Of a DNA stretch of 32,000 bases, positions 1,993 to 24,900 are shown in pieces. The first letter of the stretch is position 1, and each line of letters starts with the position of its first letter. The notes beneath the pieces are model-generated. The model saw only the letters and a program-made list of their open reading frames with translations, was not told the origin of the DNA and searched no databases. A program made the position numbers and the translations under genes. Origin of the DNA: Acaryochloris thomasi RCC1774 (GTDB taxonomy: Bacteria; Cyanobacteriota; Cyanobacteriia; Thermosynechococcales; Thermosynechococcaceae); assembly GCF_003231495.1 (NCBI RefSeq), contig NZ_PQWO01000025.1, positions 22,320 to 54,319 on the forward strand. Direction: 5' to 3'.

Positions 1993-3033
1993 ATGCAAAC
2001 GGGTTCGCTGTCTTGTCCGATTCCCATTGAGCAATACCCGCATGTTCTTCTGGCCCATGGGGGCGGTGGCAAATTAATGCATCAGCTCATTGAGCAGATG
2101 TTTATGAGATTGTTCCAGCCAGAGGTGCGTTGTCAGCACGATTCGGCAGTGTTGGAGATGCCGTCAGGACGCCTCGCCTTTACGACCGATTCCTATGTGG
2201 TACATCCCCTATTTTTCCCTGGGGGTGATATTGGTTCTTTGGCCGTTCACGGGACCATCAACGATCTAGCAATGGCGGGTGCTCGTCCCCTATATCTCAG
2301 CGCCAGCTTCATTCTAGAAGAGGGGCTAGCGATGGATACGCTCTGGCAAGTTGTGCAATCAATGCATCAGGCCGCTCAGCAGGCTAATGTACGGGTGGTA
2401 ACAGGAGACACAAAGGTTGTAGAACGAGGCAAGGGCGACGGTCTGTTTATTAATACAGCGGGCGTTGGTGTGATTGAGCACGAGCAAGTGATCCATCCGC
2501 AGTCTGTACGCCCCGGAGATGTCGTGTTGCTCAACGGTGACGTTGGACGCCACGGCATTGCCGTAATCGCAGTTAGGGAAGGGCTAGAGTTTGAAAGCAA
2601 TATTGAGAGCGATTCTGCTTTGCTCAATGATGTAGTGCTAAAGCTATTAGAGGCTGGGGTTGAGCTGCACTGTTTACGAGATTTGACTCGGGGGGGGCTT
2701 GCGAGTGCGTTGAACGAGATTGCAGAAGCCGCAGGGGTTACAATCGCACTCCAAGAAACAAGCATTCCCGTCCGAAAAGATGTGCAGGGAGCCTGTGAGA
2801 TTCTTGGATTTGATCCGTTATATGTTGCTAACGAAGGACGATTTGTAGCATTTATCCCGCAAAAATCTGTTGATCTAGCCCTTTCCATTTTGCACAGCCA
2901 AAATCATCCCTTGGCCCAGGTTATTGGTCAAGTGACAGAGAGTTCAGCGGCTCGTGTCACTATCAAGAGCAGAATTGGAACTCAGCGCATTGTTGACATG
3001 CTAAGTGGTGAACAGCTTCCCCGAATTTGCTAA
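1993..3033 (+). CDS. hypE: [NiFe]-hydrogenase maturation protein HypE (carbamoyl dehydratase, AIR-synthase/PurM-like fold)
   Basis: N-terminal CPIP...[15 protein letters not shown], a PurM-like core, and the diagnostic C-terminal PRIC ending in the catalytic Cys. 346 aa is the typical length. Confidence 0.92.
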
Positions 3034-3137
3034 GCGGCTAATGTCAGTTATGTAATTGTCTCGATAACAAACTTTTTGGGTTCTTCCCAGCTTTTGATGT
3101 CGCTTACTGCAGTCTTATGAGGTTATAGGTGTAGATA

Positions 3138-3164
3138 CTTCACAAGTTCCTCAAGTTATCGGTT
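3138..3164 (+). promoter_or_regulatory. recurrent intergenic box, copy A (upstream of the N-ATPase operon)
   Basis: CTTCACAAGTTCCTCAAGTTATCGGTT. The core TCACAAGTTCCTCAA is identical to copy C. It ends 77 nt before ATG 3231. Confidence 0.4.
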
Positions 3165-3176
3165 TATAAATCCTAA

Positions 3177-4664
<1,488 letters not shown>

Positions 4665-4733
4665 CGAGTTATGAGTTTTGAAGGATGAGTTTCGAGTTAG
4701 GACTATCTTCATCTCTGAAATTTTTGTGAAATC

Positions 4734-5111
4734 ATGCAAATCCAGATCTTTCTGCCGAATGAAATTTTGATTGACCAGTCTGTGAGTAAAGTCACGGCAG
4801 AGGCTGAGCATGGCACATTTTGTCTGTTGCCGCACCACATTGATTGTTTAGCAATTCTGGTTCCTGGCATTGTGACGCTGGTTGCTGACCAGGGCGAGGA
4901 AACCTTTGTCGCAGTAGATGAAGGGATTTTAGTGAAGTCTGGATCAGAGGTTCGGATCTCGACTCGCAATGCAGCGCAGGGGACAGAGTTAAATTGCTTG
5001 AAACAGCAGGTTGAGCAACAGTTCCGTGCAATCGATGAACAAGAACGATTAACCCGGTCTGCCCTCGCTCAGTTAGAAGCAAGTTTGGCACGTTACTTTA
5101 CTGCGCTGTAG
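4734..5111 (+). CDS. atpC: N-type F-ATPase epsilon subunit
   Basis: 125 aa. The N-terminal beta-sandwich pattern (VTAEAEHGTFCLLPHH...LVPG...VDEGILVK) is typical of epsilon. Positioned directly after beta. Confidence 0.85.
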   Translation: MQIQIFLPNEILIDQSVSKVTAEAEHGTFCLLPHHIDCLAILVPGIVTLVADQGEETFVAVDEGILVKSGSEVRISTRNAAQGTELNCLKQQVEQQFRAIDEQERLTRSALAQLEASLARYFTAL

Positions 5112-5123
5112 GGAGTGGCATTG

Positions 5124-5435
5124 ATGGGCAAACCACAACACCCAGAGGATTTGAATCCAACTAGAAAGGATGCGTTTCAAAGACAGGTCGAGGGTAAGGT
5201 TGACCGCAAAATCAAAGCGCGTCAACAGAAGAAGAGCGTCTGGTTTGGGTTAGGGATGTTTGGGTTAGTGGGGTGGTCGGTGGCGATTCCAACGCTGCTG
5301 GGCATTGCGCTGGGTGTGTGGCTCGACAGGCATATTTCTAGTCGCTATTCCTGGACTCTGATGATGTTGGTGATTGGGATGGGTTTAGGCTGCTTCAATG
5401 CCTGGTACTGGATCAGCAAGGAGAGCGGTCGATGA
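5124..5435 (+). CDS. atpQ: AtpQ (ATPase_gene1/AtpZ-like small membrane protein of N-ATPase operons)
   Basis: Basic N-terminus followed by two TM helices (WFGLGMFGLVGWSVAIPTLLGIALGVWLD; WTLMMLVIGMGLGCFNAWYWI). Third position in the operon. Possible starts are GTG 5115, TTG 5121 and ATG 5124; ATG 5124 follows GGGAG. Confidence 0.75.
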   Translation: MGKPQHPEDLNPTRKDAFQRQVEGKVDRKIKARQQKKSVWFGLGMFGLVGWSVAIPTLLGIALGVWLDRHISSRYSWTLMMLVIGMGLGCFNAWYWISKESGR

Positions 5436-6661
5436 ATGAGACGGTTCTTCTTTATCTTGTCTTGCTGGTTGGGACAACCGTTGTGGTGTCTATTTTGATC
5501 AAGGCAGGGCTGGAACGGATCGGTGTAGCTCCGTTAGTGGGGTATGTGTTGCTTGGCTTTGTTTTACAACTTTTAGATAGTCGTGGTTTTCTAACCTCCA
5601 ACACCGTCTTAGAAGTCTATGGTTTTCTGGCAGAGCTAGGCATTATCTCGTTACTGTTCCGAGTTGGCCTAGAGAGCAACCTCAGTGGATTATTACGTCA
5701 GTTACCCCACGCTTGCTTCCTGCTTACGGGGGATGTGCTGCTGAGCGGGTCTTTTGGTTTTGTCACAGCCTATTTCCTGTTGAAATTATCACTGATTCCC
5801 AGTCTGTTTATTAGCATTGCGCTGGTGGCAACGAGCGTGGGTATTTCGCTCAGCGTATGGCAAGAATCCCAGGCGCTCAACTCAAAAAACGGAGAGTTAC
5901 TCCTCGATATCGCTGAGATGGATGACATTGCGGCGATTATTCTCATGTCCTTATTGTTCGCAATTGCTCCGTTTTGGAATGGTGGTCAAGAAATAAGTTT
6001 CATTCCCCTTCTCGGGGAAGTGCTTGGACCGTTCCTATTAAAAGTTCTGATTTTTGGTACGTTCTGCTTGATCTTTTTCCGCTATATTGAGCACCCACTC
6101 ACTCATTTTTTCAGCAAGATTGAGCCAGCCCCCGATCCGATGTTGATGGTTGCGGGGACTGGTTTTATGATTGCTGCTCTAGCTGGACTATTGGGTTTTT
6201 CCGTTGCTGTAGGGGCATTCTTTGCCGGACTGGCATTTAGCCGTGATCCAGAAGCCGTCAAACTGGATGCCTCTTTTGGAGCGCTGTACGAATTCTTTGT
6301 TCCCTTTTTCTTTGTCAATATTGGCTTGCAGATTAAGTTGCAGGCTCTGGAAACTGCGCTGGGATTGAGTGTACTGCTCCTGATCGTAGCACTGCTCGGT
6401 AAGCTCATTGGCATTGGGGGACTGATGTTGATCACTCGAAGCGAGGCTGCAAGTGCGACATTGTTGGGAATTAGTATGATTCCTCGTGCAGAAATTACGA
6501 TGGTGATTATGCAGAGAGGGCGTGATTTAGGAGATTGGGCAGTATCGTCTCAAATTTTTGCTGGTATGGCCTTGGTTGCGATCGCAACCTGCATCATCTC
6601 TCCAGTACTGCTATACCCCTTACTCAAGCAGTGGCCTCAAAAACAAGAGGTTAAAGCATGA
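5432..6661 (+). CDS. cation:proton antiporter (Na+/H+ exchanger family, CPA2-like, 409 aa)
   Basis: Polytopic membrane protein. It has an ATS motif (LVATSVGIS) and a paired-Asp motif (AEMDDIAAII, D164/D165) like the TM4/TM5 signatures of CPA antiporters. The start ATG 5432 overlaps the atpQ stop (ATGA), and its stop overlaps the atpR start (ATGA at 6658-6661). Confidence 0.85.
   Translation: MNETVLLYLVLLVGTTVVVSILIKAGLERIGVAPLVGYVLLGFVLQLLDSRGFLTSNTVLEVYGFLAELGIISLLFRVGLESNLSGLLRQLPHACFLLTGDVLLSGSFGFVTAYFLLKLSLIPSLFISIALVATSVGISLSVWQESQALNSKNGELLLDIAEMDDIAAIILMSLLFAIAPFWNGGQEISFIPLLGEVLGPFLLKVLIFGTFCLIFFRYIEHPLTHFFSKIEPAPDPMLMVAGTGFMIAALAGLLGFSVAVGAFFAGLAFSRDPEAVKLDASFGALYEFFVPFFFVNIGLQIKLQALETALGLSVLLLIVALLGKLIGIGGLMLITRSEAASATLLGISMIPRAEITMVIMQRGRDLGDWAVSSQIFAGMALVAIATCIISPVLLYPLLKQWPQKQEVKA
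6578..6585. repeat. HIP1 octamer GCGATCGC
   Basis: Perfect match read directly. Confidence 0.95.
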
Positions 6662-6972
6662 CCGAAATCTCACCTACATTAATCACTGCACTCTTGTTAG
6701 GGGGAGGCTTAGGGATACTCTACTTCGGCGGTTTGTGGTTCACCATTCAACAGCTAACCCACACAAAGAAACCTGTGGTACTAATGTGGACCAGCTTCTT
6801 ACTGCGTCTGGGAGCTGTGCTCGGCTTCTTTCATCTCATTCTTCAGCACGGCGCGACCGATCAATTGCTTGCGTTATTGCTGCTTTGCTTTCTAGGATTC
6901 CTCCTGGCTCGGAATCTTTTGATTAGCAGCGTTATACCCAAGAGGAGGCTAAAAAATGAATCTCACCCCTGA
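6658..6972 (+). CDS. atpR: AtpR (N-ATPase-specific small membrane subunit)
   Basis: 104 aa with three hydrophobic helices and intramembrane Arg residues (SFLLRLGAV, GFLLARNLL), as described for AtpR. Lies immediately upstream of subunit a. Confidence 0.75.
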   Translation: MTEISPTLITALLLGGGLGILYFGGLWFTIQQLTHTKKPVVLMWTSFLLRLGAVLGFFHLILQHGATDQLLALLLLCFLGFLLARNLLISSVIPKRRLKNESHP

Positions 6973-7660
6973 TCAAATTATCATCTGGCAATGGGGAGCA
7001 TTCTCTCTCAATGCCACGCTGCTTTTCACTTGGCTGGTCATGGGACTGCTGGTGATGGGTTCTTGGCTCATCACTCGTCAGCTCTCAAACTCGACGCAGA
7101 TATCACGAGGGCAGAACCTTCTAGAGGTTATCGTTCTGGGGATTAGCAACCAGATCCAGGAAATTAGCGAGCAACCGCCTGGACCTTATCTACCCTTTGT
7201 AGGGACGCTCTTTATTTTTATTGCGTTTTCAAATCTGTTCAGCGTGGTTCCGGGCTATCAGCCTCCGACAGGGTCTCTCTCGACCACAACGGCATTGGCG
7301 CTCTGTGTTTTCTGTGCCGTCCCCCTCTATGGGATCAAGAAAAAAGGAGTTTGGGGCTATCTGCAGCAATATCTACAGCCGAGTCCGGTAATGCTGCCCT
7401 TTAATATCATTGGAGACTTCTCGCGAATTGTAGCCCTTGCGGTTCGCCTGTTCGGCAATGTCATGAGTGGCACCATGATTGTCGCTATTCTGCTGTCCGT
7501 GGCTCCGTTGCTATTCCCCGTGGTCATGCAAATGCTGGGGTTATTAACCGGATTGATTCAAGCCTATATTTTCGCCATTCTGGCAATGGTGTTTATCGCG
7601 GCAGCGAGCCAGGTAGACAAGAAACAACATCCGACTATCAGTGAGGAAACCCATGGATAA
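6956..7660 (+). CDS. atpB: N-type F-ATPase subunit a
   Basis: 234 aa polytopic protein with the conserved stator arginine context (LAVRLFGNVMSG) and the C-terminal QAYIFAILA helix. Overlaps atpR by 17 nt. Confidence 0.9.
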   Translation: MNLTPDQIIIWQWGAFSLNATLLFTWLVMGLLVMGSWLITRQLSNSTQISRGQNLLEVIVLGISNQIQEISEQPPGPYLPFVGTLFIFIAFSNLFSVVPGYQPPTGSLSTTTALALCVFCAVPLYGIKKKGVWGYLQQYLQPSPVMLPFNIIGDFSRIVALAVRLFGNVMSGTMIVAILLSVAPLLFPVVMQMLGLLTGLIQAYIFAILAMVFIAAASQVDKKQHPTISEETHG

Positions 7661-7943
7661 TATTGCCTTAATCGGGATGGCTTCGATTGTGATGTCAGGA
7701 TTCACTATAGCCATTGGTTCCATTGGTCCTGCCTTGGGAGAGGGGCGAGCGTTATCCCAAGCGCTCAGCGCCATTGCTCAACAGCCCGATGAAGCTAATA
7801 CCATCACGCGGGTGCTGTTTGTCGGCATGGCGCTGGTGGAATCAACAGCCATTTACTGCTTTGTAATTACGCTAATTTTGATTTTTGCCAATCCCTTTTG
7901 GGCCTACGTCGTAGAGCAGGCCATTACGGCGGGGGGAGGGTAG
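7653..7943 (+). CDS. atpE: N-type F-ATPase subunit c (Na+-type ion-site signature)
   Basis: Hairpin of two TM helices with an RQPD/E-type loop (AQQPDE). Helix 2 reads LVESTAIY and helix 1 reads GPALGEG. The track start at 7641 is GTG; ATG 7653 follows GAGGAAA and overlaps the atpB stop by 8 nt. Confidence 0.9.
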   Translation: MDNIALIGMASIVMSGFTIAIGSIGPALGEGRALSQALSAIAQQPDEANTITRVLFVGMALVESTAIYCFVITLILIFANPFWAYVVEQAITAGGG

Positions 7944-7946
7944 GAA

Positions 7947-8735
7947 ATGCTAATCGATCCCTTAACCACCTTTGCCCAAATCATCAATTTTCTGATTTTG
8001 GTGGCATTGCTGAAGCGGTTCCTCTATGTTCCGATTACCCGCGTGATGAAACAGCGAGAGCACCGCATTGCAATGCAGCTACAGGAGGCTGCAGCCAAAG
8101 AGGAAATGGCTCAACAAGAAGCGGAACGATATCGCCAAATGCAGCGTGATCTAGAGGCTCAGCAGGCTCAATTCCTAGCGCAGGCCCAACTGGATGCGGA
8201 TGAGCATCGACAAATGTTGCTGCAGAACGCACGGGAAGATGTGGATAGCATCCATGCTACATGGACTGCGGCGGTCGAGTGCGAGAAGCAGGTGTTTTTG
8301 GGGGCACTCAGGCAGCGGGCGGGGCAGCAGGTGGCGACAACGGTGCGCGGCGTGCTTCGAGACTTGGCGAACACGAATTTAGAGCTGCAGATAGTCGAAG
8401 CTTTTATCGTTCATTTGAGTCACCTCACCGTGCAGGAACAAGAGACGCTAGAGGCGGCCTTATCAACCTCAAATGCTCAAGAACTGGTTATTCAGAGTAC
8501 ATTCCCGATTTCGGCTGTAGACCAAGCCAGGGTACTGGAAGCATTGTATGTGCAGACCACGACTCTGGTAGGTCTTGGCATGGGCCAGTTTGTAATCGTT
8601 CCCGATCTGATGTGTGGGATTGAACTGAAGATTCCGGGATACAAGCTGGCTTGGAACCTAGCGCACTACCTTGAGCGCCTAGAAGAGAATTTAGCACGGG
8701 TTTTGGATAGTACCGCATTAGCGGAGGACGGATAA
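7947..8735 (+). CDS. atpF: N-type F-ATPase subunit b (long form, 262 aa)
   Basis: Single N-terminal TM helix (FAQIINFLILVALL) followed by a long charged helical region rich in Q/E/A/R. Positioned between c and alpha. Confidence 0.85.
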   Translation: MLIDPLTTFAQIINFLILVALLKRFLYVPITRVMKQREHRIAMQLQEAAAKEEMAQQEAERYRQMQRDLEAQQAQFLAQAQLDADEHRQMLLQNAREDVDSIHATWTAAVECEKQVFLGALRQRAGQQVATTVRGVLRDLANTNLELQIVEAFIVHLSHLTVQEQETLEAALSTSNAQELVIQSTFPISAVDQARVLEALYVQTTTLVGLGMGQFVIVPDLMCGIELKIPGYKLAWNLAHYLERLEENLARVLDSTALAEDG

Positions 8736-8738
8736 ATA

Positions 8739-10271
8739 ATGGCGACGCCCGAGCTTGATATTTTGAAGCCGGTTTTGGAGGACGTTTTTGCAGCCTTTGA
8801 GCAGGTTGAAGGTCAGTATCCCTTTGAATTGCGAAGTCAGGAAGTAGGGACGGTAACCAGTTTGGGCCACGGTATTGCGCGGGCGACGGGGCTGACCCAT
8901 GTTCAATCCGAGGAGCTGGTGAAATTTCCTGGAGATCGCATGGGCATTGCCTTCAACCTCGATCCAGAGGAAGTGGGCCTAATTTTGCTCGATGATAGCC
9001 GTTCTTTGAAGGCGGGATGCGAAGTTCAGCGCACTGGGCGGGTCTTAGACGTACCAGTGGGAGAAGCGTTTTTAGGTCGCGTAGTGGATGCGACCGGACG
9101 CCCCCTCGATCACCGAGGGATAGTGAGGACGTTTGAGCGTCGCGCCGTTGAACGGGAAGCTCCAGCAATTATGGATCGTGCTCCGGTGACGGTACCGCTG
9201 CAGACGGGGATTAAGGTGATTGATGCGCTGATTCCCATTGGTCGGGGACAGCGGGAACTGATTTTAGGCGATCGCCAAACGGGTAAAACAGCCATTGCCA
9301 TCGATACGATCCTCAACCAGAAGGGCAAGGACATCATCTGTATCTATTGCGCCATCGGCCAGCGCAGTTCTGCCGTAGCTAAGTTAATTGCGGAATTACG
9401 AGATCGCAATGCAATGGACTACTGCATCGTAGTAGTGGCTGGAGGCGAAGCGACACCCGGCCTGCAATACATTACCCCCTACGCCGCCACCACAATGGCA
9501 GAGTACTTCATGGAACAGGGGCGAGACGTGTTGATCATCTACGACGATCTGATTCAACATGCCCGTGCCTATCGTGAACTGTCGCTGCTGCTGCGCCGCC
9601 CGCCTGGTCGTGAAGCCTTCCCTGGCGATATTTTCTATATTCATGCTCGGTTATTAGAGCGGGCCACTCATCTGCACCCTGATTTAGGCGGTGGCTCTTT
9701 AACCGCCCTACCCATTATCGAAACGGAGGCCCAAAATCTATCGGCCTATATTCCGACGAACCTGGTCTCAATTACCGACGGGCAAATCTATCTGACGCCC
9801 GATCTGTTTCAAAAGGGGATATTCCCCGCCGTGGATGTGGGGAAATCTGTTTCCCGTGTAGGAGGAAAAGCTCAGCTCCCGGCTTATCGAAGCGTTGCGG
9901 GTGATTTACGCCTCTCCTATTCACAGTTTGAAGAGTTAGAATCCTTTGCTCGGTTTGGGACTCGTCTGGAAGCGTCAACCCTCCAGTCTTTAGATCGCGG
10001 TCGTCGGGTTCGAGAAGTTTTGCAGCAGCGACAGTATCAGCCTCTGTCGGTTGAGGGGCAAATTGCCGTGCTGTTGGCGGTGACTCAAGGGTTATTTGAT
10101 ACAGTCCCCCTCGATCAAGTATCTGAGGTAGAGGATCAGGTCGGTCAGGCTGTGCAGCGAGAGTTACCGGAGATCTGCGATCGGATTCAGAGTGGGACTA
10201 AGCTGAGTGAAGACGATCGCAATTCTCTTCTGCAGTGCATCGCAGCGAACTTATCAAATTGGTCGGAATAA
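8739..10271 (+). CDS. atpA: N-type F-ATPase alpha subunit
   Basis: Walker A GDRQTGKT, plus CIYCAIGQR and [21 protein letters not shown](F)PGD motifs. 510 aa. Confidence 0.93.
9268..9275. repeat. HIP1 octamer GCGATCGC
   Basis: Perfect match read directly. Confidence 0.95.
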
Positions 10272-10286
10272 AGGGGAGTAGGAACT

Positions 10287-11162
10287 ATGAAAACCGCCGA
10301 AGCCCTGAAGCGTCAAATCGCCAGCACCCAAGAGTTGCAAACTGTTGCTAAGACCATGAAAGCGCTTGCTGCTGTCAATATTCGCCAGTATGAACAGGCA
10401 GCTATCGCCCTGAAGCAATATAGCCATACGCTCAGAATGGGACGGCAGATTTTTCTGATTAACTACCCTGAAGCCTTAGCTGAGTTACGGCCATCGGTTC
10501 ACCGTCGTCTAGGGGCGGTCATTTTTGGCTCAGATCAGGGGATGTGTGGTCGCTTCAATGAACAGTTAGCTCAATATGTCATTCATGAGTTGAATCGAAT
10601 TTCTTCACAGATGAAGGAGCCGCTTTTGTTGGGGATGGGATCACGGGTTTGCGATCGCATCCAAGAACAAGGCTTCCCTATCGAACGATGTCTATCTGTC
10701 CCCGCTTCCGTAGAGGGGATTACGGCTAAGATACAAACCATTGTTCTGCAGCTCGAACAGTGGCGAACCGCACAACAGGTAGATCAAATTTGGGTGTTCC
10801 ATAACCGAGCCGCGAAAGGCGCAACCTCTACCCCTCGCCAACGGCAGATTTTTCCACTCTCGATTCGAGGATCGCAGCGTCCCTGGTCCTCTCGCTGTCG
10901 TCCAATGGTGTCTCAAAGTCGAGAGCAGCTTTTCTCGGCGTTATTTCGGCAGCACTTCTTTGTCACCCTTTACCGTGCCTGTGCTGAATCGCTTGCCAGC
11001 GAAAATGCTAGTCGCCTCACATCAATGCAGTTAGCTCAGAACAATATTACAGAGCATCTCACTGAGCTGCAGGCCATCTTTCAGCAACAACGTCAGACCA
11101 AGATTACTGAAGAATTGCTCGATATTGTGTCCGGTTTTGAAGCTCTGAACCGACCACATTAA
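10287..11162 (+). CDS. atpG: N-type F-ATPase gamma subunit
   Basis: N-terminal helix (IASTQELQTVAKTMKALAAVNIRQYE) and C-terminal helix (ASENASRLTSMQLAQNNI...ITEELLDIVSG) typical of gamma. A GGGGAG SD lies upstream. Last gene of the operon. Confidence 0.88.
   Translation: MKTAEALKRQIASTQELQTVAKTMKALAAVNIRQYEQAAIALKQYSHTLRMGRQIFLINYPEALAELRPSVHRRLGAVIFGSDQGMCGRFNEQLAQYVIHELNRISSQMKEPLLLGMGSRVCDRIQEQGFPIERCLSVPASVEGITAKIQTIVLQLEQWRTAQQVDQIWVFHNRAAKGATSTPRQRQIFPLSIRGSQRPWSSRCRPMVSQSREQLFSALFRQHFFVTLYRACAESLASENASRLTSMQLAQNNITEHLTELQAIFQQQRQTKITEELLDIVSGFEALNRPH
10651..10658. repeat. HIP1 octamer GCGATCGC
   Basis: Perfect match read directly. Confidence 0.95.
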
Positions 11163-11188
11163 CCGCGAACTTAAAGTTCATAACTGAC

Positions 11189-11755
11189 TCAACTTCCTGT
11201 ACAAAGAATATCGGCACAGGTGGCCACTGTCTGCCATTCTTGAATGACCAGAGCCGGAATCGTCAGCTTGACTGTCTTCTCATCTTCAGTTGAGATTGCC
11301 GAAGGCCATTCGGCAGCTATCGAAAGCTCTAGAGGCCCATTCAACTCAGACACAATTGGCTTGAGGTCATACTGATTAATATTTGGGGCTAGAGGGCGAT
11401 CTATGTACAGTGATTCTGGAACGCTGACTGCCTCTAGAGTGTTTCCATGAGACGGGATGAGGGTGAGTGGTTGTTCATGATCGACACTCACTCTATCAGT
11501 GGGTCCTGCAAGCTGCAAAGATATTGTAGGTGGACTGGCAAAACCTGTGTGTTTTGAGACAACGACCTCCCAAGAATACCCTTGCTGATCCCGCAGTGTT
11601 TGCTGTGACTGATAAAGCATCTGGCCTTGACTTTCTCGGGTCAGAGTGACGGCAGCAACGGCAGGCGTGAGTGTTCCTATGCTCAAGACTAGCAGCAATG
11701 CTAAAGCACTTGTCAGCAAAAACCAGAAAGCACCTGTGCGGGTCCAATTTCTCAT
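11189..11755 (-). CDS. hypothetical exported/membrane-anchored protein (N-terminal signal-anchor; resembles a cyanobacterial DUF3122-type protein)
   Basis: 188 aa ORF with a hydrophobic N-terminus (FWFLLTSALALLLVLSIGTL...AVAA). Convergent with atpG. The family name is from memory only. Confidence 0.6.
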   Translation of the reverse strand: MRNWTRTGAFWFLLTSALALLLVLSIGTLTPAVAAVTLTRESQGQMLYQSQQTLRDQQGYSWEVVVSKHTGFASPPTISLQLAGPTDRVSVDHEQPLTLIPSHGNTLEAVSVPESLYIDRPLAPNINQYDLKPIVSELNGPLELSIAAEWPSAISTEDEKTVKLTIPALVIQEWQTVATCADILCTGS

Positions 11756-11780
11756 TTTGTTTGTTTTAGCATTCTAAACA

Positions 11781-11990
11781 TCACAAAGTCTTGCACGACC
11801 GACTCCAGCAGCGCTCTAAGAAGATTCGCTGTTTCTCTGCCTCGTGCTCTTTCGTAAAACAACGCTCTAATAGCTGTTTGCTATAAGTTTTAGAGAATTT
11901 GAATGGATTCATGACGGTTTCATCTTGAAAAAGAGGCTGATTCAGATACACCCATACCGTCTTCATCAGCCTCAGAACTGGATTTCCCAT
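11781..11990 (-). CDS. small hypothetical protein (69 aa)
   Basis: ATG preceded by a perfect AGGAGG 8 nt upstream on the minus strand (plus-strand cctcct at 12000-12005). No recognisable domain. Confidence 0.5.
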   Translation of the reverse strand: MGNPVLRLMKTVWVYLNQPLFQDETVMNPFKFSKTYSKQLLERCFTKEHEAEKQRIFLERCWSRSCKTL

Positions 11991-12039
11991 GACTAAGACC
12001 TCCTATTTGTTAACTCTTCTATCTGTGACTTCGCGCAGG

Positions 12040-12450
12040 CTAGCTCATGGCTGCAGCGCTGCGATCGTAGGTGGCTCGAAAGCTGGGATGGACTTTCCCT
12101 TGAATGTGATTCCAGTATTGGGTGGGGTCAGCCACCATGTGAATGTCAGCCGTCAAACGACCTAACATGCTTTGCTGGCGCTGCTTAATGGCTCGATGAT
12201 GGTTCATCATCAACCAGCGGGCTTCATCGGTGGCGGACTTACATCCAGCCGCTGCGGGCTGCTTTTGACCTGCCGTGCGATACTCAACACCCCGATAGGT
12301 TAGGTCAGCCTCAGGTTTGGTTACTGGGAACTCATGGAGGATATGGCGTGGGAATGCTACGCCTCGATATTTACCTGCTTCCTTTTGCTTGCCATAGTTG
12401 ACGTCTGGAGGTGTGTAGTCGTAGGTGACACCTCGATATTTGAGTTGCAT
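12040..12450 (-). CDS. DUF4278-like protein (MQLKYRGVTY N-terminus, three YRGV motifs)
   Basis: I prefer the start at ATG 12450, which has AAGGAG upstream, over the track start at 12477. The N-terminal M-x-L-x-YRGV-x-Y and the repeated YRGV match what I remember of cyanobacterial DUF4278. Confidence 0.7.
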   Translation of the reverse strand: MQLKYRGVTYDYTPPDVNYGKQKEAGKYRGVAFPRHILHEFPVTKPEADLTYRGVEYRTAGQKQPAAAGCKSATDEARWLMMNHHRAIKQRQQSMLGRLTADIHMVADPTQYWNHIQGKVHPSFRATYDRSAAAMS

Positions 12451-12545
12451 TGTCTCATCTCCTTTCGCAGAGTACATTGAGTCTCTACCTTGACTGTAGG
12501 CTGATCATCTGAGGACTTTATGAAGGCTATTCAGGCTTGATGCTC

Positions 12546-19171: not shown

Positions 19172-21628
19172 ATGGCGCAAGCAACTCAACAATTCCAGCA
19201 GACCCAAAGCTCTAAAACCCATGAACTATTGATGTGGTTTGATGAAGTCGGAATTGATGACGTTCCTCTCGTGGGAGGAAAGAATGCATCTCTCGGTGAG
19301 ATGATTCAGCAGCTTTCTCAGAAAGGTATAAAAGTTCCCGCAGGATTTGCCACAACAGCCTTTGCTTATCGGTCCTTCATTCAGCTGGCAGGGCTAGAGC
19401 CTCAACTGCGTGAGATATTCGCCGATCTTGATGTCGAAAATGTTAGGAGTCTGAGAAGAGCGGGGCAACAGGCTCGAACGCTCATTCTGAATACGCCTTT
19501 CCCTGAGGATTTGAAAGGGGTCATTACTCAGGCTTACTTAGCATTATGCGATCGCTGTGCCACAGGGCCTTATCTGAACGACGAGCTAGATGTCGCGGTG
19601 CGGTCTAGCGCCACGGCAGAAGATCTCCCCGACGCTAGTTTTGCCGGTCAACAGGAAACCTATCTCAACGTGCATGGCATTCATGGCGTCCTGGAAGCCT
19701 GCCATAAATGTTTTGCTTCTCTCTTCACTGATCGTGCCATCTCATACCGAACTACTAAAGGGTTTGACCACTTCAGCATTGCGCTCTCGGTAGGGGTGCA
19801 GCAGATGGTCCGCTCTGACCTCGCCACCGCTGGTGTGATGTTCTCTATCGATACCGAAACAGGGTTCAAGAATGCCGCTTTGATCACTGCAGCCTATGGT
19901 CTGGGGGAAAACGTCGTTCAAGGATCCGTCAACCCTGATGAGTATCTGGTGTTCAAGCCAACGCTGCTGAAGGGCTGCCAGCCCATCCTTGATAAGCGAT
20001 TGGGTAGCAAAGAAATCAAGATGGTCTACGACCTAGAGGGCAGTAAGCTCACTAAAAACGTGCTAGTTCCCGAGCATGATCGTCAAAACTTTGCCCTCAC
20101 CAACGATGAGATCCTCACCCTAGCCCGATGGGCTTGCATCATTGAAGATCATTACTCTGCTGTCCGGGGCGTCGATACCCCAATGGATATTGAGTGGGCA
20201 CAGGATGGTCACACTGGTGAACTATTCATCGTCCAAGCGCGACCGGAAACGGTGCAGTCTCAGAAGGCTGAGCATCTTTTAACTACCTATCGCTTGCTAG
20301 ATTCTGACGAGGTATTGGTCCAGGGTCGAGCTGTCGGAGCCAGAATCGGCGAAGGCAAAGTGCGGGTGATTGCCGATGCCAGCCAGATCGGTTTATTCAA
20401 GCCCGGGGAAGTTTTGGTGACTTCCCGAACTGATCCAGATTGGGAGCCGATTATGAAGCAGGCCGCTGCCATTGTTACCGATCAGGGGGGCCGTACCTGC
20501 CACGCTGCGATCATTGCCCGTGAGCTGGGCATTCCAGCCATTGTGGGCTGTAACCATGCGACCACAAAACTGTCTACGGGGCAGGTGGTCACGGTCTCCT
20601 GTGCTGAAGGTGAAGGCGGCAATGTCTATGCAGGGCAGTTGTCCTTTGAGAAGCAGGAAACACCGCTGGCCGATTTGCCCCGCACCCGGACTCAAATCTT
20701 GATGAATATAGCCAATCCGGAAACTGCCTTTGGGTTAGCGTCTATTCCCTGTGATGGCGTGGGTTTGGCCCGTCTAGAATTCATTATTGCCAATCAGATT
20801 AAGGTGCATCCGCTGGCATTGATTCACTTTGATCAGCTAGAGGATCCGCTGGTGAAGGATGAGATCGCAACCCTAACCACCCACTATCCCTACAAACCCG
20901 ACTTCTTCATGGATAAGCTGGCCCACGGCATCGGCACCATTGCGGCAGCCTTCTATCCGAAGCCCGTGATCGTGCGAATGTCGGATTTCAAAAGCAACGA
21001 GTACGCCAATCTTTTGGGCGGACAGCCGTTTGAGCCGCACGAAGAGAATCCCATGCTGGGCTGGCGAGGGGCCTCTCGATACTACGAAGGATCGTATCGG
21101 GACGCCTTTGAGCTAGAGTGCAGAGCCATCCGGCGTGTACGAGAGGACATGGGACTCACCAATGTAATTCCAATGATTCCGTTCTGTCGTACCCCAGATG
21201 AAGGCCAAAAAGTTCTCGAAGAAATGGCTCGGCACGGTCTCCAACGAGGTCAAGATGGCCTCCAGGTTTATGTGATGTGTGAGGTGCCCACTAACGTTAT
21301 TTTGGCTGACCAGTTTAGCGACATCTTTGATGGCTTCTCCATTGGCTCCAATGACCTGACCCAGCTCACCCTGGGACTTGATCGGGATTCGAGTTTAGTG
21401 GCCCGTCTTTTTGACGAACGCAATGAGGCCGTCAAAGAAATGATCCGTCAGGTGATTGCCAAGGCAAAAGCTAAGGGCCGCAAAGTGGGTATCTGTGGCC
21501 AAGCGCCCAGTGACTACCCAGAATTTGCTCAGTTCTTAGTGGAGCAGGGCATTGACTCCCTCAGTCTCAATGCTGATTCGGTCCTCAAAACCTTACTTGC
21601 TGTTGCAGAAGCAGAGGGACACCAGTGA
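19172..21628 (+). CDS. ppsA: phosphoenolpyruvate synthase (pyruvate, water dikinase)
   Basis: 818 aa. N-terminal ATP-grasp part (VGGKNASLGEM), phospho-His swivel domain (GGRTCHAAIIARELGIPA), and C-terminal PEP-utilising TIM barrel (GSNDLTQLTLG..., CGQAPSD). Confidence 0.93.
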   Translation: MAQATQQFQQTQSSKTHELLMWFDEVGIDDVPLVGGKNASLGEMIQQLSQKGIKVPAGFATTAFAYRSFIQLAGLEPQLREIFADLDVENVRSLRRAGQQARTLILNTPFPEDLKGVITQAYLALCDRCATGPYLNDELDVAVRSSATAEDLPDASFAGQQETYLNVHGIHGVLEACHKCFASLFTDRAISYRTTKGFDHFSIALSVGVQQMVRSDLATAGVMFSIDTETGFKNAALITAAYGLGENVVQGSVNPDEYLVFKPTLLKGCQPILDKRLGSKEIKMVYDLEGSKLTKNVLVPEHDRQNFALTNDEILTLARWACIIEDHYSAVRGVDTPMDIEWAQDGHTGELFIVQARPETVQSQKAEHLLTTYRLLDSDEVLVQGRAVGARIGEGKVRVIADASQIGLFKPGEVLVTSRTDPDWEPIMKQAAAIVTDQGGRTCHAAIIARELGIPAIVGCNHATTKLSTGQVVTVSCAEGEGGNVYAGQLSFEKQETPLADLPRTRTQILMNIANPETAFGLASIPCDGVGLARLEFIIANQIKVHPLALIHFDQLEDPLVKDEIATLTTHYPYKPDFFMDKLAHGIGTIAAAFYPKPVIVRMSDFKSNEYANLLGGQPFEPHEENPMLGWRGASRYYEGSYRDAFELECRAIRRVREDMGLTNVIPMIPFCRTPDEGQKVLEEMARHGLQRGQDGLQVYVMCEVPTNVILADQFSDIFDGFSIGSNDLTQLTLGLDRDSSLVARLFDERNEAVKEMIRQVIAKAKAKGRKVGICGQAPSDYPEFAQFLVEQGIDSLSLNADSVLKTLLAVAEAEGHQ
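19548..19555. repeat. HIP1 octamer GCGATCGC
   Basis: Perfect match read directly. Confidence 0.95.
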
Positions 21629-21686
21629 TGGATATCAAACAATTCTTTCAAATCATGATTCAGACTCAGGTCTATTGGAGGTTGGT

Positions 21687-22247
21687 ATGTTTCACAAAAT
21701 TTTAGTTGCGATGGATAGCTCTAAAACAGGCGACGAGATCTTTGACTATGCTCTAGCGTTAGCCCAACCTCTTAAAGCCGATCTAATGTTGCTACATGTG
21801 TTGTCGAGTGACGAGGTCGGTGCCCCAGATATGCCGCTAGCTCTTCCTGGCCCCTACTACTATCCAGGACTTTCAGATCTTCCCCTTCAGACCTATCGAG
21901 AAACTTGGGAGAAACTGGAAGCCCAGGGGATAGGACGTCTTCAGAGCTGTGAAAAGCAGGCCAAGCTGCATGGCGTATCGACAGAATATACACAAACCTC
22001 TGGCAGTCCTGGACGAACTATTTGCGACTTAGCCCAAAACTGGGGAGCCGATCTCATTCTGATGGGGTGTCGTGGGCGGGCAGGATTAAGTCAACTCATC
22101 CTCGGTAGTGTGAGTAATTACGTGATGCACCATGCCCCCTGCTCTGTTGTAGTTGTCAAGGCACCCGTTCATACTTTTTCACCGTTAGATCATACTCCTG
22201 AAACCTCTGTACATCTGACTGAATCTCGATTAGCGGGGTGGCAATAA
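21687..22247 (+). CDS. universal stress protein (UspA family), paralog 1 of 5
   Basis: MFHKILVAMDSS start and C-terminal GCRGRAGLSQLILGSVSNYVMHHAPCSVVVV (ATP motif G-2x-G-9x-G-S intact). ATG 21687 has a GGAGG SD. The longer track ORF from 21552 overlaps ppsA and is rejected. Confidence 0.88.
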   Translation: MFHKILVAMDSSKTGDEIFDYALALAQPLKADLMLLHVLSSDEVGAPDMPLALPGPYYYPGLSDLPLQTYRETWEKLEAQGIGRLQSCEKQAKLHGVSTEYTQTSGSPGRTICDLAQNWGADLILMGCRGRAGLSQLILGSVSNYVMHHAPCSVVVVKAPVHTFSPLDHTPETSVHLTESRLAGWQ

Positions 22248-22771
22248 TGTATCAAACTATTCTGGCCGCAGTGGACTTATCAGAATTGAGCTTGGCGGTG
22301 TTTAAGCAAGCGCTCCAGCTCACTAAGTTCTGTGGCGCAAAGCTCATCCTGCTTCATGTTTTGTCCAGTGACGAAGAAGGTTTTCCGATCCTGGCGACCT
22401 TTCCTTATGATCACTTCGAACCAACCTTAGCAGAAGGCTATCTCGAAAGTTGGCGACAGCTTGAGCAGAAGGGACTGCAACATTTGAAAACCTTCGCAGA
22501 TCATGCTCAGCAAGAGGGAATAAAGATAGAGACCCTGCAGATGGCCGGTAATCCAGGACAAATCATTCGGGATCTGGCTCGTGACAGAGCAGTGAATTTA
22601 ATCATGATGGGCAACCGTGGTCGCTCCGGTCTGTCAGAACTCTTGCTAGGGAGTCAGAGCAACTATGTGATGCACCATGCTCCCTGTTCAGTGCAAGTGG
22701 TCAAGGTTCCTGTTCCTAAACTTGAACCACTTGTGGCTACAGCGAATCTTACTAAGAGTACAGGTAATTAG
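22247..22771 (+). CDS. universal stress protein, paralog 2 of 5
   Basis: MYQTILAAVD... [28 protein letters not shown]. The start ATG shares one base with the TAA stop of paralog 1 (TAATG). Confidence 0.88.
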   Translation: MYQTILAAVDLSELSLAVFKQALQLTKFCGAKLILLHVLSSDEEGFPILATFPYDHFEPTLAEGYLESWRQLEQKGLQHLKTFADHAQQEGIKIETLQMAGNPGQIIRDLARDRAVNLIMMGNRGRSGLSELLLGSQSNYVMHHAPCSVQVVKVPVPKLEPLVATANLTKSTGN

Positions 22772-22780
22772 GAGGTCATT

Positions 22781-23278
22781 ATGTATAAGAGCATTCTTGT
22801 TGCAATGGATGTTTTTGACTCAAGAACAACTGTCTTTGAGGAGGCACTTAAACTTGCCAGACTCAGTGGAGCCAAACTCGTATTACTGCATGCTCTTTCA
22901 AACGATGAAGTCGGTTATCCTAATGTGCCTCCTCTCGGCATTGATGAAGCCTACTATGAGCGCTGGCGCAGCTTTGTTAAGGAGGGATTGCTACACCTCA
23001 ATCGGTTCAAAGAGCAAGCTGAGACCGAAGACGTTGAGGCCGAGATGCTTCAGGAAATTGGTCGCCCAGGGCATGTGATTTGTGCTGTTGCCCAAGAACA
23101 GAACGTTGACCTAATCATCATTGGGAATCGTGGTCGCTCTGGTCTTTCGGAAGCTGTGCTGGGTAGCCAGAGTAATTACGTGATGCACCATGCCCCCTGT
23201 TCCGTCTTAGTTCATCGCTTAACGGAGGATCGTTCTCAGTCAAGTGATGACAAAGCACCTTTAGCTGAATCTGTGTGA
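22781..23278 (+). CDS. universal stress protein, paralog 3 of 5
   Basis: MYKSILVAMD... [28 protein letters not shown]. An AGGAGG SD lies upstream, with a 9-nt gap after paralog 2. Confidence 0.88.
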   Translation: MYKSILVAMDVFDSRTTVFEEALKLARLSGAKLVLLHALSNDEVGYPNVPPLGIDEAYYERWRSFVKEGLLHLNRFKEQAETEDVEAEMLQEIGRPGHVICAVAQEQNVDLIIIGNRGRSGLSEAVLGSQSNYVMHHAPCSVLVHRLTEDRSQSSDDKAPLAESV

Positions 23279-23291
23279 TCAGGAGGTTCTG

Positions 23292-23825
23292 ATGTTTAAC
23301 AAAATTCTAGTGGCATTAGATTACTCAGCATCCTGTGAACAAGTCTTTGAGCAGGGTTTGACCTTAGCAAAGATGATGCATGCACAGCTCATGTTGGTGC
23401 ATGTGGTTACCCCTCTAGAGGAAACATATCCGATCTCTACTCTCATGCCCAGTCTGTTAGATGACCCGGTAACCTCCCGCTTCGAAATCGCAAATGCCTA
23501 TATTAGAGAGCTTGAGGCTTTCGAGATGAAGGGGCTTGAGATGTTAAAGTCGCACGCTAATATCGCCACTGAGCAGGGGCTACAAGCAGGAGTTCAACAA
23601 CCCTCAGGGTATCCAGCTCGTAGCCTCTGTGATGTTGCTCGAACCTGGAATGCCGACGTGATTGTTATGGGGCGGCGGAGCCAAAACGTCTTGAGAAAAG
23701 CTTTGCTAGGCAGCATCAGCAACTACGTTACCCACCATGCACCCTGTTCCGTACTGATTGTTCATAACCAGGACAGTCCTGAATCGACTGTGCAACAGGA
23801 GACTGCTGACACCGCCAAGCCTTAA
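23292..23825 (+). CDS. universal stress protein, paralog 4 of 5 (degenerate nucleotide-binding motif)
   Basis: MFNKILVALD... GRRSQNVLRKALLGSISNYVTHHAPCSV. The second Gly of G-2x-G-9x-G(S/T) is replaced by Ser. An AGGAGG SD lies upstream. Confidence 0.85.
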   Translation: MFNKILVALDYSASCEQVFEQGLTLAKMMHAQLMLVHVVTPLEETYPISTLMPSLLDDPVTSRFEIANAYIRELEAFEMKGLEMLKSHANIATEQGLQAGVQQPSGYPARSLCDVARTWNADVIVMGRRSQNVLRKALLGSISNYVTHHAPCSVLIVHNQDSPESTVQQETADTAKP

Positions 23826-23849
23826 GTCTGAATCGTCAAGGTGAAAATC

Positions 23850-24377
23850 ATGTATCACAAAATTTTAGTCGCGATTGATGAAGCCACCATTAACCAAAAT
23901 ATTTTTAATGCAGCGCTGGCACTCGCGAAGACAATACCTGATGTCAAGCTTGTGCTCCTGCACGTTTTGTCTCCTGATCTGGTTAAAGTCCCGGCTCATG
24001 TCTCTGTCCCTGGTCCGTTCCAGCAGCCCAATCTAGACCCGTACCCCAGCCTGCGAGAGGATCTGTTGTTCAGTCACCAGCGACAGTGGAATGCCTATGA
24101 CAGTGATTGTCTTTCTCAACTGCGGTCCTATACAGCAGAGGCCATCAAAGCAGGGGTTACCACTGAATTTATGCAGCAACCGGGTGTTCCGGGGCCTGTG
24201 ATCTGTGATCTGGCGAAAGCTCTACCAGCGGATCTGATTTTAATCGGGAACCGAGGTCGTTCAGGTCTCAAAGAAGTTCTGCTCGGCAGTGTCAGCAGAT
24301 ATGTTTCAGACCATGCCCCCTGCTCCGTTATGGTCATTCGTGCTCAACCCAAGCCCCATGTCGCTGATGAAGCTTGA
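23850..24377 (+). CDS. universal stress protein, paralog 5 of 5
   Basis: [10 protein letters not shown]... [31 protein letters not shown] 23850 (the track start is GTG 23841). The 3' end overlaps the hoxE start. Confidence 0.88.
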
Positions 24378-24900
24378 GCAAAGGATTCAAACAAGCAGGT
24401 CAAACCATCCTAGTGGTGATAAGCGTTTTAAAGTGCTAGAGGCCACCATGAAGCGGCATCAGTATCAACCTGACGCCCTAATTGAGGTTCTCCATAAAGC
24501 GCAGGAACTCTTTGGCTATCTAGAGCTAGATTTACTGCTGCACATTGCCCATAGCCTCAAGCTCCCCCCGAGCCACGTCTATGGTGTAGCGACCTTTTAT
24601 CACTTCTTTGCGCTCAAGCCTGCTGGGGCACATACCTGCGTTATTTGTATGGGCACTGCCTGCTATGTCAAAGGAGCCGCATCTCTTCTGAGCACCGTAG
24701 AACAGATGGCCCAAATTCAGGCTGGAGAAACTACCGCAGATGGTCAGCTTTCTCTCAGCACAGCCCGCTGCTTAGGGGCCTGTGGGAGCGCCCCCGCTGT
24801 CGTAATCGATGGCGATGTGATGGGGTATCAAACCCCAGAGACCCTGGGCGCACTACTCACTATCCACGTTCAGTCCCCAGGTGAGGAGGAGGCACAATAA
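24358..24900 (+). CDS. hoxE: bidirectional [NiFe]-hydrogenase diaphorase subunit HoxE (NuoE-like, [2Fe-2S])
   Basis: [33 protein letters not shown] and the thioredoxin-like 2Fe-2S cysteines (CVICMGTAC ... CLGACGSAP). The start is uncertain: ATG 24358 or 24367, with earlier in-frame ATGs at 24289, 24301 and 24313. All of them overlap usp5. Confidence 0.88.

Follow-up and report, generated by a model that had tools for sequence, protein, structure and literature searches.

A cation:proton antiporter gene as a conserved, optional member of the N-ATPase operon in Acaryochloris thomasi and other bacteria

The stretch of the Acaryochloris thomasi RCC1774 genome analysed here, 32,000 nucleotides (nt) of contig NZ_PQWO01000025.1 and referred to as the window, contains an N-ATPase operon in which a gene for a 409-residue cation:proton antiporter (CPA) lies between atpQ and atpR. 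Pfam and NCBIfam models resolve the operon as atpD-C-Q-[CPA2]-R-B-E-F-A-G, ten packed genes on the + strand between 3207 and 11162 (Table 1). The canonical order, defined as atpDCQRBEFAG by Dibrova, Galperin and Mulkidjanian in 2010 (PMC2881411), had been cited in a first-pass annotation of the window, which also described the antiporter and its two neighbours; all nine canonical genes are found here in that order, the antiporter is extra, and its flanks match the AtpQ and AtpR models. The curated cut-offs of the NCBIfam 'alternate F1F0 ATPase' models are exceeded by the beta, epsilon, a, c, alpha and gamma subunits. Besides its gene order, the operon has the other marks of an N-ATPase that a stretch of this length can show, namely AtpQ and AtpR (the hydrophobic stretches of the latter contain Arg residues in the translation), no delta subunit, a b subunit of the long type and a Na+ motif in the c subunit. 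The Pfam scan of the operon gave no match to delta (OSCP), and atpA begins 3 nt past atpF. The c subunit holds the full set of Na+ ligands, with the helix-1 Glu in ..PALGEGRA.. and ..LVESTAIYCF.. in helix 2. The ESTxIY motif is present in all 48 antiporter-linked operons, and the helix-1 Glu is replaced by Gln in only one.

A protein database record identical to the antiporter comes from A. thomasi RCC1774 and is annotated as 'Na(+)/H(+)-K(+) antiporter GerN'. The ratio of nonsynonymous to synonymous substitution rates (dN/dS) of the gene is 0.10–0.18 in eight close pairs, a range equal to that of atpQ, atpR and atpB. Given these ratios, the gene is real and constrained. It is a genuine internal gene of a complete N-ATPase operon.

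The arrangement is not unique to this genome. A scan of species-representative genomes recovered 275 relatives of the antiporter, and the best 80 (46–81% identity) were taken with flanks of 9 kilobases (kb) and annotated with the window's ten proteins; single loci are cited below with the prefix L. The antiporter lies directly after atpQ and/or before atpR in 52 of these best 80 loci. The order is strictly atpQ-CPA-atpR in 38 of them (20 cyanobacterial, 18 other), an insert of 0.4–4.6 kb separates the antiporter from atpR in six, four have atpC-atpQ-CPA with atpR absent downstream, and four are truncated by a contig end yet consistent. In four more loci the antiporter neighbours a canonical operon but is oriented differently (L024 and L071 divergent, L052 convergent, L057 upstream). 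The antiporter is alone in 16 loci with good flanks and in 8 with short flanks, and the neighbours of these stand-alone copies showed local synteny only, with no recurring partner family. Embedded antiporters occur in Cyanobacteriota (including Acaryochloris, Rivularia, Calothrix, Richelia, Mastigocoleus, Coleofasciculus, Phormidium, Pleurocapsa and Xenococcus), Desulfobacterota, Bacteroidota-group lineages and Zixiibacteriota; carriers outside the cyanobacteria include Desulfobacteraceae, Desulfatiglandales, Syntrophobacteria, Syntrophales, Cytophagia, Ignavibacteriaceae, Balneolales and Zixiibacteriota.

The frequency of the variant among N-ATPase operons at large was estimated from two further collections. 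The first, a metagenome sample anchored on the c subunit, contained 45 loci with both atpQ and atpR; the two genes were adjacent in 41 and enclosed an antiporter in 4. Among the PLSDB plasmids, 64 records have an N-type a subunit, and the antiporter is present in three, all of them from Acaryochloris. A survey of N-ATPase operons for an intervening PF00999 gene had been proposed in the first-pass annotation, and its outcome is divided: the variant is conserved and widespread within its lineages, yet it is a minority, at about 5–9% of operons. The antiporter is a conserved optional gene of the N-ATPase operon. As a separate observation, several contigs from metagenome-assembled genomes (MAGs) of Pleurocapsales, Xenococcaceae and Spirulina (L004, L006, L008, L010 and L009) carry only atpC-atpQ-antiporter followed by 6–9 kb of unrelated genes, with atpD 4.6 kb upstream of atpC in L009; in these loci the operon may be split, or the contigs misassembled.

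Both ends of the antiporter gene overlap its neighbours by 4 nt. Its ATG (5432) overlaps the TGA of atpQ (5433–5435) in the sequence ATGA at 5432–5435, the Shine-Dalgarno site for the antiporter lying within the last codons of atpQ, and the ATG of atpR (6658) overlaps the TGA of the antiporter (6659–6661) in a second ATGA at 6658–6661. Both overlaps had been noted in the first-pass annotation and are read from the sequence as described. In nearly all loci, from several phyla, the last codons of atpQ encode ..YW[IV]xKES.. and place AAGGAG some 8 nt ahead of the start of the antiporter, and in nearly all of the 52 loci directly adjoining atpQ and/or atpR the antiporter junction is RTGAnTGA (an 8-nt overlap) or ATGA. 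Most embedded loci join the antiporter to atpR by ATGA or GTGA, or by a spacer of 1–20 nt after GGAG. Ten loci have an insertion or an operon split 3' of the antiporter, and the overlap of atpQ and antiporter is at least 8 nt in eight of these ten; about 260 nt lie between the two genes in L010 and L017. The canonical metagenome operons overlap atpQ and atpR in the same way (ATGAnTGA in 9 of 41, ATGA in 5 of 41), so the insertion has kept the coupling logic on both of its sides. It seems that the inserted antiporter has taken over the original initiation site of atpR. As to the N-termini, AtpR begins with M-N/I-E in the canonical ATGAnTGA operons (L088–L160, metagenomes), and the embedded antiporter begins with M-N/I/S/T-E.

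A consensus scan for promoters and terminators from 2900 to 11800 gave counts equal to the shuffle background and no site at either junction, where there is also no room for one. Rfam was scanned over the whole window with gathering scores and over 2900–7100 at E ≤ 1; neither scan found anything relevant, and thus no Na+/Li+ riboswitch or leader RNA. The anatomy of the junctions suggests that atpQ, the antiporter and atpR are co-transcribed and translationally coupled.

Table 1. Features of the N-ATPase operon in the window, and genes found in the antiporter–atpR gap of other loci (locus prefix L)
Feature	Position	Strand	Basis and remarks
atpD, N-ATPase F1 beta	3207–4664	+	TIGR03305 'alternate F1F0 ATPase beta', 802 bits against a cut-off of 752; PF00006; reading frame taken from the first TTG, true start may be ATG at 3231
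atpC, epsilon	4734–5111	+	TIGR03166, 135.7 against a cut-off of 100.1; PF02823
atpQ, AtpI/AtpZ-like small membrane protein	5115–5435	+	PF09527, E = 4.7e-15; TIGR02230, 139.7 bits, above cut-off
Junction 1	5418–5439	+	AAGGAG (5418–5423), 8-nt spacer, then ATGAATGA
NapA-like CPA2 cation:proton antiporter, 409 residues	5432–6661	+	PF00999, E = 1.8e-42, residues 19–399; key residues A133-T134-S135, D159, E162, D164-D165, K324, P351-R352-A353-E354
Junction 2	6645–6661	+	AAGAGG (6645–6650), 7-nt spacer, then ATGA
atpR, N-ATPase-specific small membrane protein	6658–6972	+	PF12966, E = 3.5e-20; TIGR03165, 56.9 against a cut-off of 55.5
atpB, Fo a	6956–7660	+	TIGR03306, 349 against a cut-off of 302; 17-nt overlap with atpR
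atpE, c	7641–7943	+	TIGR03322, 145.6 against a cut-off of 130.9; likely start ATG at 7653
atpF, long b (262 residues)	7947–8735	+	PF00430; TIGR03321, 217 against a cut-off of 225; NF011044, 317
atpA, alpha	8739–10271	+	TIGR03324, 828 against a cut-off of 750
atpG, gamma, last operon gene	10287–11162	+	TIGR03323, 286 against a cut-off of 282
IS605 OrfB/TnpB in antiporter–atpR gap	L034:3053–4204		
GmrSD_N + RiboL-PSP HEPN protein in antiporter–atpR gap	L013:13100–14652		
PIN-domain protein in antiporter–atpR gap	L015:10601–11056		

Our comparison of gene histories indicates that the antiporter has been inherited together with the ATPase. A neighbour-joining tree of the antiporter and a tree of AtpD plus AtpB agree in their groups: two clades of cyanobacteria, one of Desulfobacterota, one of Cytophagia, Ignavibacteria and Zixiibacteriota, and the pair L056 and L063. 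Pairwise distances of the antiporter and of the ATPase subunits are correlated with a Mantel r of 0.87, a value reached by none of 2000 permutations (n = 42). Canonical operons are interleaved with the antiporter-bearing clades in the AtpD plus AtpB tree, and stand-alone antiporters nest within embedded clades, second copies in Waterburya and in the MAG HOU_bin.0041 being examples; losses, duplications and relocations are therefore part of the history. Despite a rearranged order, the antiporter stays beside the operon in L024, L052, L057 and L071. The pairing of pump and exchanger proposed in the first-pass annotation is supported in that the association is not accidental, given at least 52 species-level genomes, overlapping junctions, co-variation and linkage after rearrangement. 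The pairing is biologically meaningful.

Could the antiporter nevertheless be a neutral passenger in a permissive gap, with no functional link to the pump? The gap between antiporter and atpR does accept selfish and defence genes, among them IS605 TnpB, a GmrSD plus HEPN protein and a PIN-domain protein (Table 1), and most N-ATPase operons do without the antiporter. A weak DUF6163 match marks a small membrane protein that recurs at L034:2527–2946 and L010:10312–10704. A passenger, however, would hardly be of the same subfamily in the same position across phyla, with coupling signals and under purifying selection; moreover, the linkage survives the four rearrangements, and distant members of the subfamily adjoin V/A-type, N-type-like and P-type ATPases. 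We consider this explanation scarcely credible.

Another possibility is an antiporter that belongs physically to the membrane sector of the N-ATPase, or is docked to AtpQ/AtpR, for instance as an ion-delivery or regulatory subunit. Its position exactly between two small membrane proteins specific to N-ATPases would suit such a role. So would the strong co-variation of distances, and the fact that insertions and splits fall between antiporter and atpR while the overlap with atpQ mostly reaches 8 nt or more in those loci. Co-inheritance, however, explains the co-variation equally well, and close homologues stand alone in 16–24 of the 80 loci and outside the operon in four. No AtpQ–antiporter or antiporter–AtpR fusion was seen among the long homologues: the 499-residue homologue P0121 has a loop insertion, not an AtpQ fusion, and three other long homologues match PF00999 only. 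The nearest precedent is the ntp operon of Enterococcus hirae, which encodes a Na+ V-ATPase; its last gene, ntpJ/KtrB, is co-transcribed with the pump at high Na+ or alkaline pH, and a function independent of that of the pump is reported for its product (PMC12604602). A physical subunit thus appears very unlikely, and we favour two machines whose coupling would be functional.

As to its own activity, the antiporter is probably an electrogenic Na+(Li+)/H+ antiporter of the NapA type within CPA2. A profile of 40 homologues searched against the PDB matched NapA of Thermus thermophilus (TtNapA) with E = 6e-36 and KefC with E = 1.5e-12. In the alignment to NapA, D164/D165 correspond to D156/D157 of the DD motif in TM5, K324 to K305, the Lys at motif position 8 with a salt bridge to the first Asp, R352 of PRAE to R331 of PRGE, and A133-T134-S135 to the ATS of transmembrane helix 4 (TM4). 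The AlphaFold2 (AF2) model, with a predicted local distance difference test (pLDDT) score of 83.5 and a predicted TM-score (pTM) of 0.85, is predicted to have helix breaks at 132–137 and 348–353, as in the NhaA fold, and its top Foldseek match is the inward-facing NapA 5BZ2 (TM-score 0.78/0.83). The protein has no regulatory domain, as it ends 10 residues past the transporter domain and has no second Pfam match. In the analysis of Masrati et al., the electrogenic CPA2 clades NhaA, NapA-I/II and GerN are recognised by an Asp at CPA motif position 6 combined with a Lys at position 8 (PMC6181914). The Kef/KEA K+ exchangers have a QD motif and an RCK domain (PMC11150392). The DD and Lys motif without an extra domain argues for a NapA-like antiporter. 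A Kef-type identity was rejected because DD stands in place of QD and the RCK/KTN domain is absent, and the MagA iron-transporter model was also rejected (50.9 against a cut-off of 700).

Residue conservation defines a recognisable antiporter subfamily with the signature D-x2-E-x-DD, Lys and PRAE. Two sets were compared, the 81 locus sequences and a set of 132 made up of the window protein and 131 more distant representatives. All key residues (Table 1) are unchanged in 81 of 81 locus sequences, including the ATS motif and the paired D164/D165, for which the positions given in the first-pass annotation were correct. D164 and K324 are unchanged in both sets, and D165 is kept in 130 of the 132 representatives, D159 in 91% and E162 in 86%. 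D159 and E162 lie on TM5, one and two turns ahead of the DD motif (i-6 and i-3 from D165), and may make up a ladder of acidic residues that leads to the binding site. The subfamily is compact, since just 221 clusters at 50% identity are reached at E ≤ 1e-30, against 1596 at E ≤ 1e-10.

We propose that a Na+/H+ antiporter and a Na+-pumping ATPase are translationally coupled as separate membrane proteins with one task, the ATP-powered extrusion of Na+, a reading to which we give somewhat better than an even chance. Both machines would be made from one mRNA, on which ribosomes would pass from atpQ through the antiporter to atpR. The N-ATPase would expel Na+ electrogenically at the expense of ATP, making the membrane potential more negative inside, and the NapA-like antiporter would spend that potential by moving further Na+ out and H+ in. 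Because the antiporter would use the potential made by the ATPase, the pair should provide ATP-powered Na+ extrusion together with acidification of the cytoplasm, and should do so without hyperpolarisation if the charges moved by the two balance, as we infer. The pair would be independent of a respiratory or photosynthetic proton-motive force, and the whole unit could travel laterally as a cassette for tolerance to salt and alkali, the Acaryochloris marina copy being on a conjugative plasmid. N-ATPases are regarded as ATP-driven Na+ export pumps (PMC2881411), and the enzyme of Aphanothece halophytica is reported to move Na+ and confer salt tolerance, as cited in PMC5706428.

Several points weigh against this proposal. 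The source annotation is GerN-like, that is, Na+/H+-K+, and Na+(Li+)/H+ transport is ascribed to the subfamily by comparison with NapA, although the DD/K motif by itself does not reveal ion selectivity. Where the subfamily has D159 and E162, NapA has Gly (G151) and Val (V154), and the acidic residues could alter selectivity or affinity. Against TIGR00932, the curated CPA2 model, the protein scores 107.8 where 238.3 is required, although it is a CPA2 relative. About 91–95% of N-ATPase operons are without the gene, so the antiporter is not required by the pump. High salt did not raise the N-ATPase transcripts of Synechococcus PCC 7002, a strain without an embedded antiporter (PMC3468840), so the role of N-ATPases in salt stress is a tentative one.

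Part of this evidence would also suit an antiporter of other or broader cation specificity (GerN-like Na+/H+-K+, K+/H+ or divalent), whose role would be K+ loading or charge compensation and not extra Na+ export. The GerN-like annotation and the two acidic TM5 residues absent from TtNapA agree with such a specificity, as does the E. hirae operon, in which the gene that accompanies a Na+ V-ATPase encodes a K+ transporter (ntpJ; PMC12604602). The QD motif and RCK domain of Kef/KEA are absent, however, NapA is by far the nearest solved relative, and GerN was compared by annotation only. This possibility has a small but appreciable chance of being correct.

If the antiporter carries Na+, the direction of transport has to be considered as well. 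Run in reverse, it would take up Na+ and release H+, turning the sodium-motive force built by the ATPase into a proton-motive force or recycling the coupling ion, and on balance the pair would pump protons at the expense of ATP. Energy-limited anaerobes such as Desulfobacteraceae, Syntrophales and Zixiibacteriota are numerous among the carriers, and the gene order would hold both activities in fixed proportion. An exchanger of 2H+ for 1Na+, the stoichiometry taken from NapA and NhaA (PMC6181914), would when running backwards carry net positive charge out against the potential of the pump itself, however, and most carriers are marine or saline according to their record titles, so that Na+ export is an evident need. 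Reverse operation is in our view unlikely, and we retain Na+ export by the pair as the preferred reading.

The contexts of eleven distant representatives of the subfamily (36–40% identity) were also looked up, and eight of the eleven stand alone. The other three were recorded beside ATPase genes. In L162:3643–9917, a member with 36% identity heads a V/A-type ATPase operon with an 8-nt gap to the next gene, in the order antiporter, G-like subunit, AC39, I, c, F, E, A; the sequence ..LAEGIAIY.. in subunit c is no obvious Na+ motif. In L176:761–7966, about 100 nt separate a member with 38% identity from the N-type-like operon downstream of it, atpD-C-Q-B-E-F-A-G, in which no atpR was called; the same operon variant has been reported for Methylacidiphilum (PMC6688271). 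In L163:90–3044, only 1 nt lies between a member with 38% identity and the P-type ATPase gene (E1-E2_ATPase plus HAD) that comes next. Among the embedded loci, L013:10224–12980 and L017:3386–6181, both of Pleurocapsales type, have a type II P-type cation ATPase of 918–931 residues (PF00690/PF00122/PF00689) on the same strand directly 3' of the antiporter and before atpR, and this position of the P-type ATPase puts three ion-transport systems in one operon. These few cases hint at a recurrent pairing of the subfamily with ATP-driven pumps. One may go further and suppose that the subfamily, about 220 clusters, has specialised as a companion to ATP-driven cation pumps in general, acting as an electrical shunt that would give net electroneutral ATP-powered Na+/H+ exchange and, in N-ATPases, possibly docked to AtpQ/AtpR; we hold this to be speculative and rather unlikely.

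These results matter for N-ATPases, which are widespread and laterally transferred and whose physiology is poorly understood, one Na+-type and one H+-type enzyme having been studied biochemically in the literature searched. A coupled antiporter in 5–9% of operons would amount to a natural experiment that reveals the second activity with which evolution repeatedly pairs the pump. It also offers a testable model, in which ATP would power Na+ export and pH control where the proton-motive force is weak, as in the dark, in anoxia or in alkaline mats. A. marina MBIC11017 is a cultured strain with the same arrangement, and the subfamily defined here, with its extra acidic residues on the ion-binding helix, gives the model a protein to work on.

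The arrangement itself is not new, as the first-pass annotation had supposed it to be. The main text of Dibrova et al. mentions in one line a 'single gene insertion' in the N-ATPase operon of A. marina, and the gene is neither named nor discussed there (PMC2881411); RefSeq annotates a 'cation:proton antiporter' between an 'AtpZ/AtpI family protein' and an 'ATP synthase subunit I' on A. marina plasmid pREB4. Beyond that line, the literature searched, which covers few subscription journals, gave no description of an antiporter as a member of N-ATPase operons, and it gave no functional study of the subfamily. What is new here is the breadth of the arrangement, the conserved coupling signals, the co-inheritance with ATPase subunits, the definition of the subfamily and the hint of other ATP-driven pump partners.

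Among characterised antiporters, T. thermophilus NapA (4BWZ, 5BZ2, 5BZ3), an electrogenic Na+/H+ antiporter, is about 26% identical to the window protein. The modelled helix count of the latter fits the NhaA-type fold of 13 transmembrane helices with two broken helices, and ATS, DD, Lys and Arg are common to both; NapA has PRGE, G151 and V154, whereas the window subfamily, known here from sequence and model, has PRAE, D159 and E162. Bacillus cereus GerN (Na+/H+-K+) lent its name to the window protein in the source annotation. GerN acts in spore germination and is not known to be linked to any ATPase operon. The GerN clade belongs to CPA2 and, having the Asp at motif position 6 and the Lys at position 8, is judged electrogenic (PMC6181914). 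E. coli KefC and plant KEA (8BXG) share the CPA2 superfamily and the fold (TM-score about 0.72), but KefC, in contrast to the window antiporter, has QD and a C-terminal RCK domain and is electroneutral and K+ selective (PMC11150392).

Among known operons, the one in the window agrees with the canonical N-ATPase operon in its nine genes, their order, the lack of delta, AtpQ and AtpR, and a c subunit with the helix-1 Glu and ESTxxY, and differs by the CPA2 antiporter between atpQ and atpR. The operon on plasmid pREB4 of A. marina MBIC11017 has an identical gene order including the antiporter (78% identity), with DUF3122 and DUF4278 genes downstream; unlike the window, its atpQ and antiporter overlap by 8 nt, and the copy is on a conjugative plasmid. 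The surroundings at 1993–3033, 11189–12477 and 19172–26583 of the window likewise resemble pREB4. Downstream of atpG both have the DUF3122 and DUF4278 genes, and the PEP synthase gene that adjoins the operon in pREB4 is found at 19172–21628 in the window, which also has a HypE-like gene, at least one Usp gene (22781–23278) among reading frames of similar size, and a HoxF-like Complex1_51K gene. The E. hirae ntp operon is alike in that the operon of a rotary Na+ pump also encodes a secondary cation transporter, but there a V-ATPase is joined by a Trk/Ktr K+ uptake gene in last place, whereas in the window an N-type F-ATPase operon holds a CPA2 antiporter gene in its interior.

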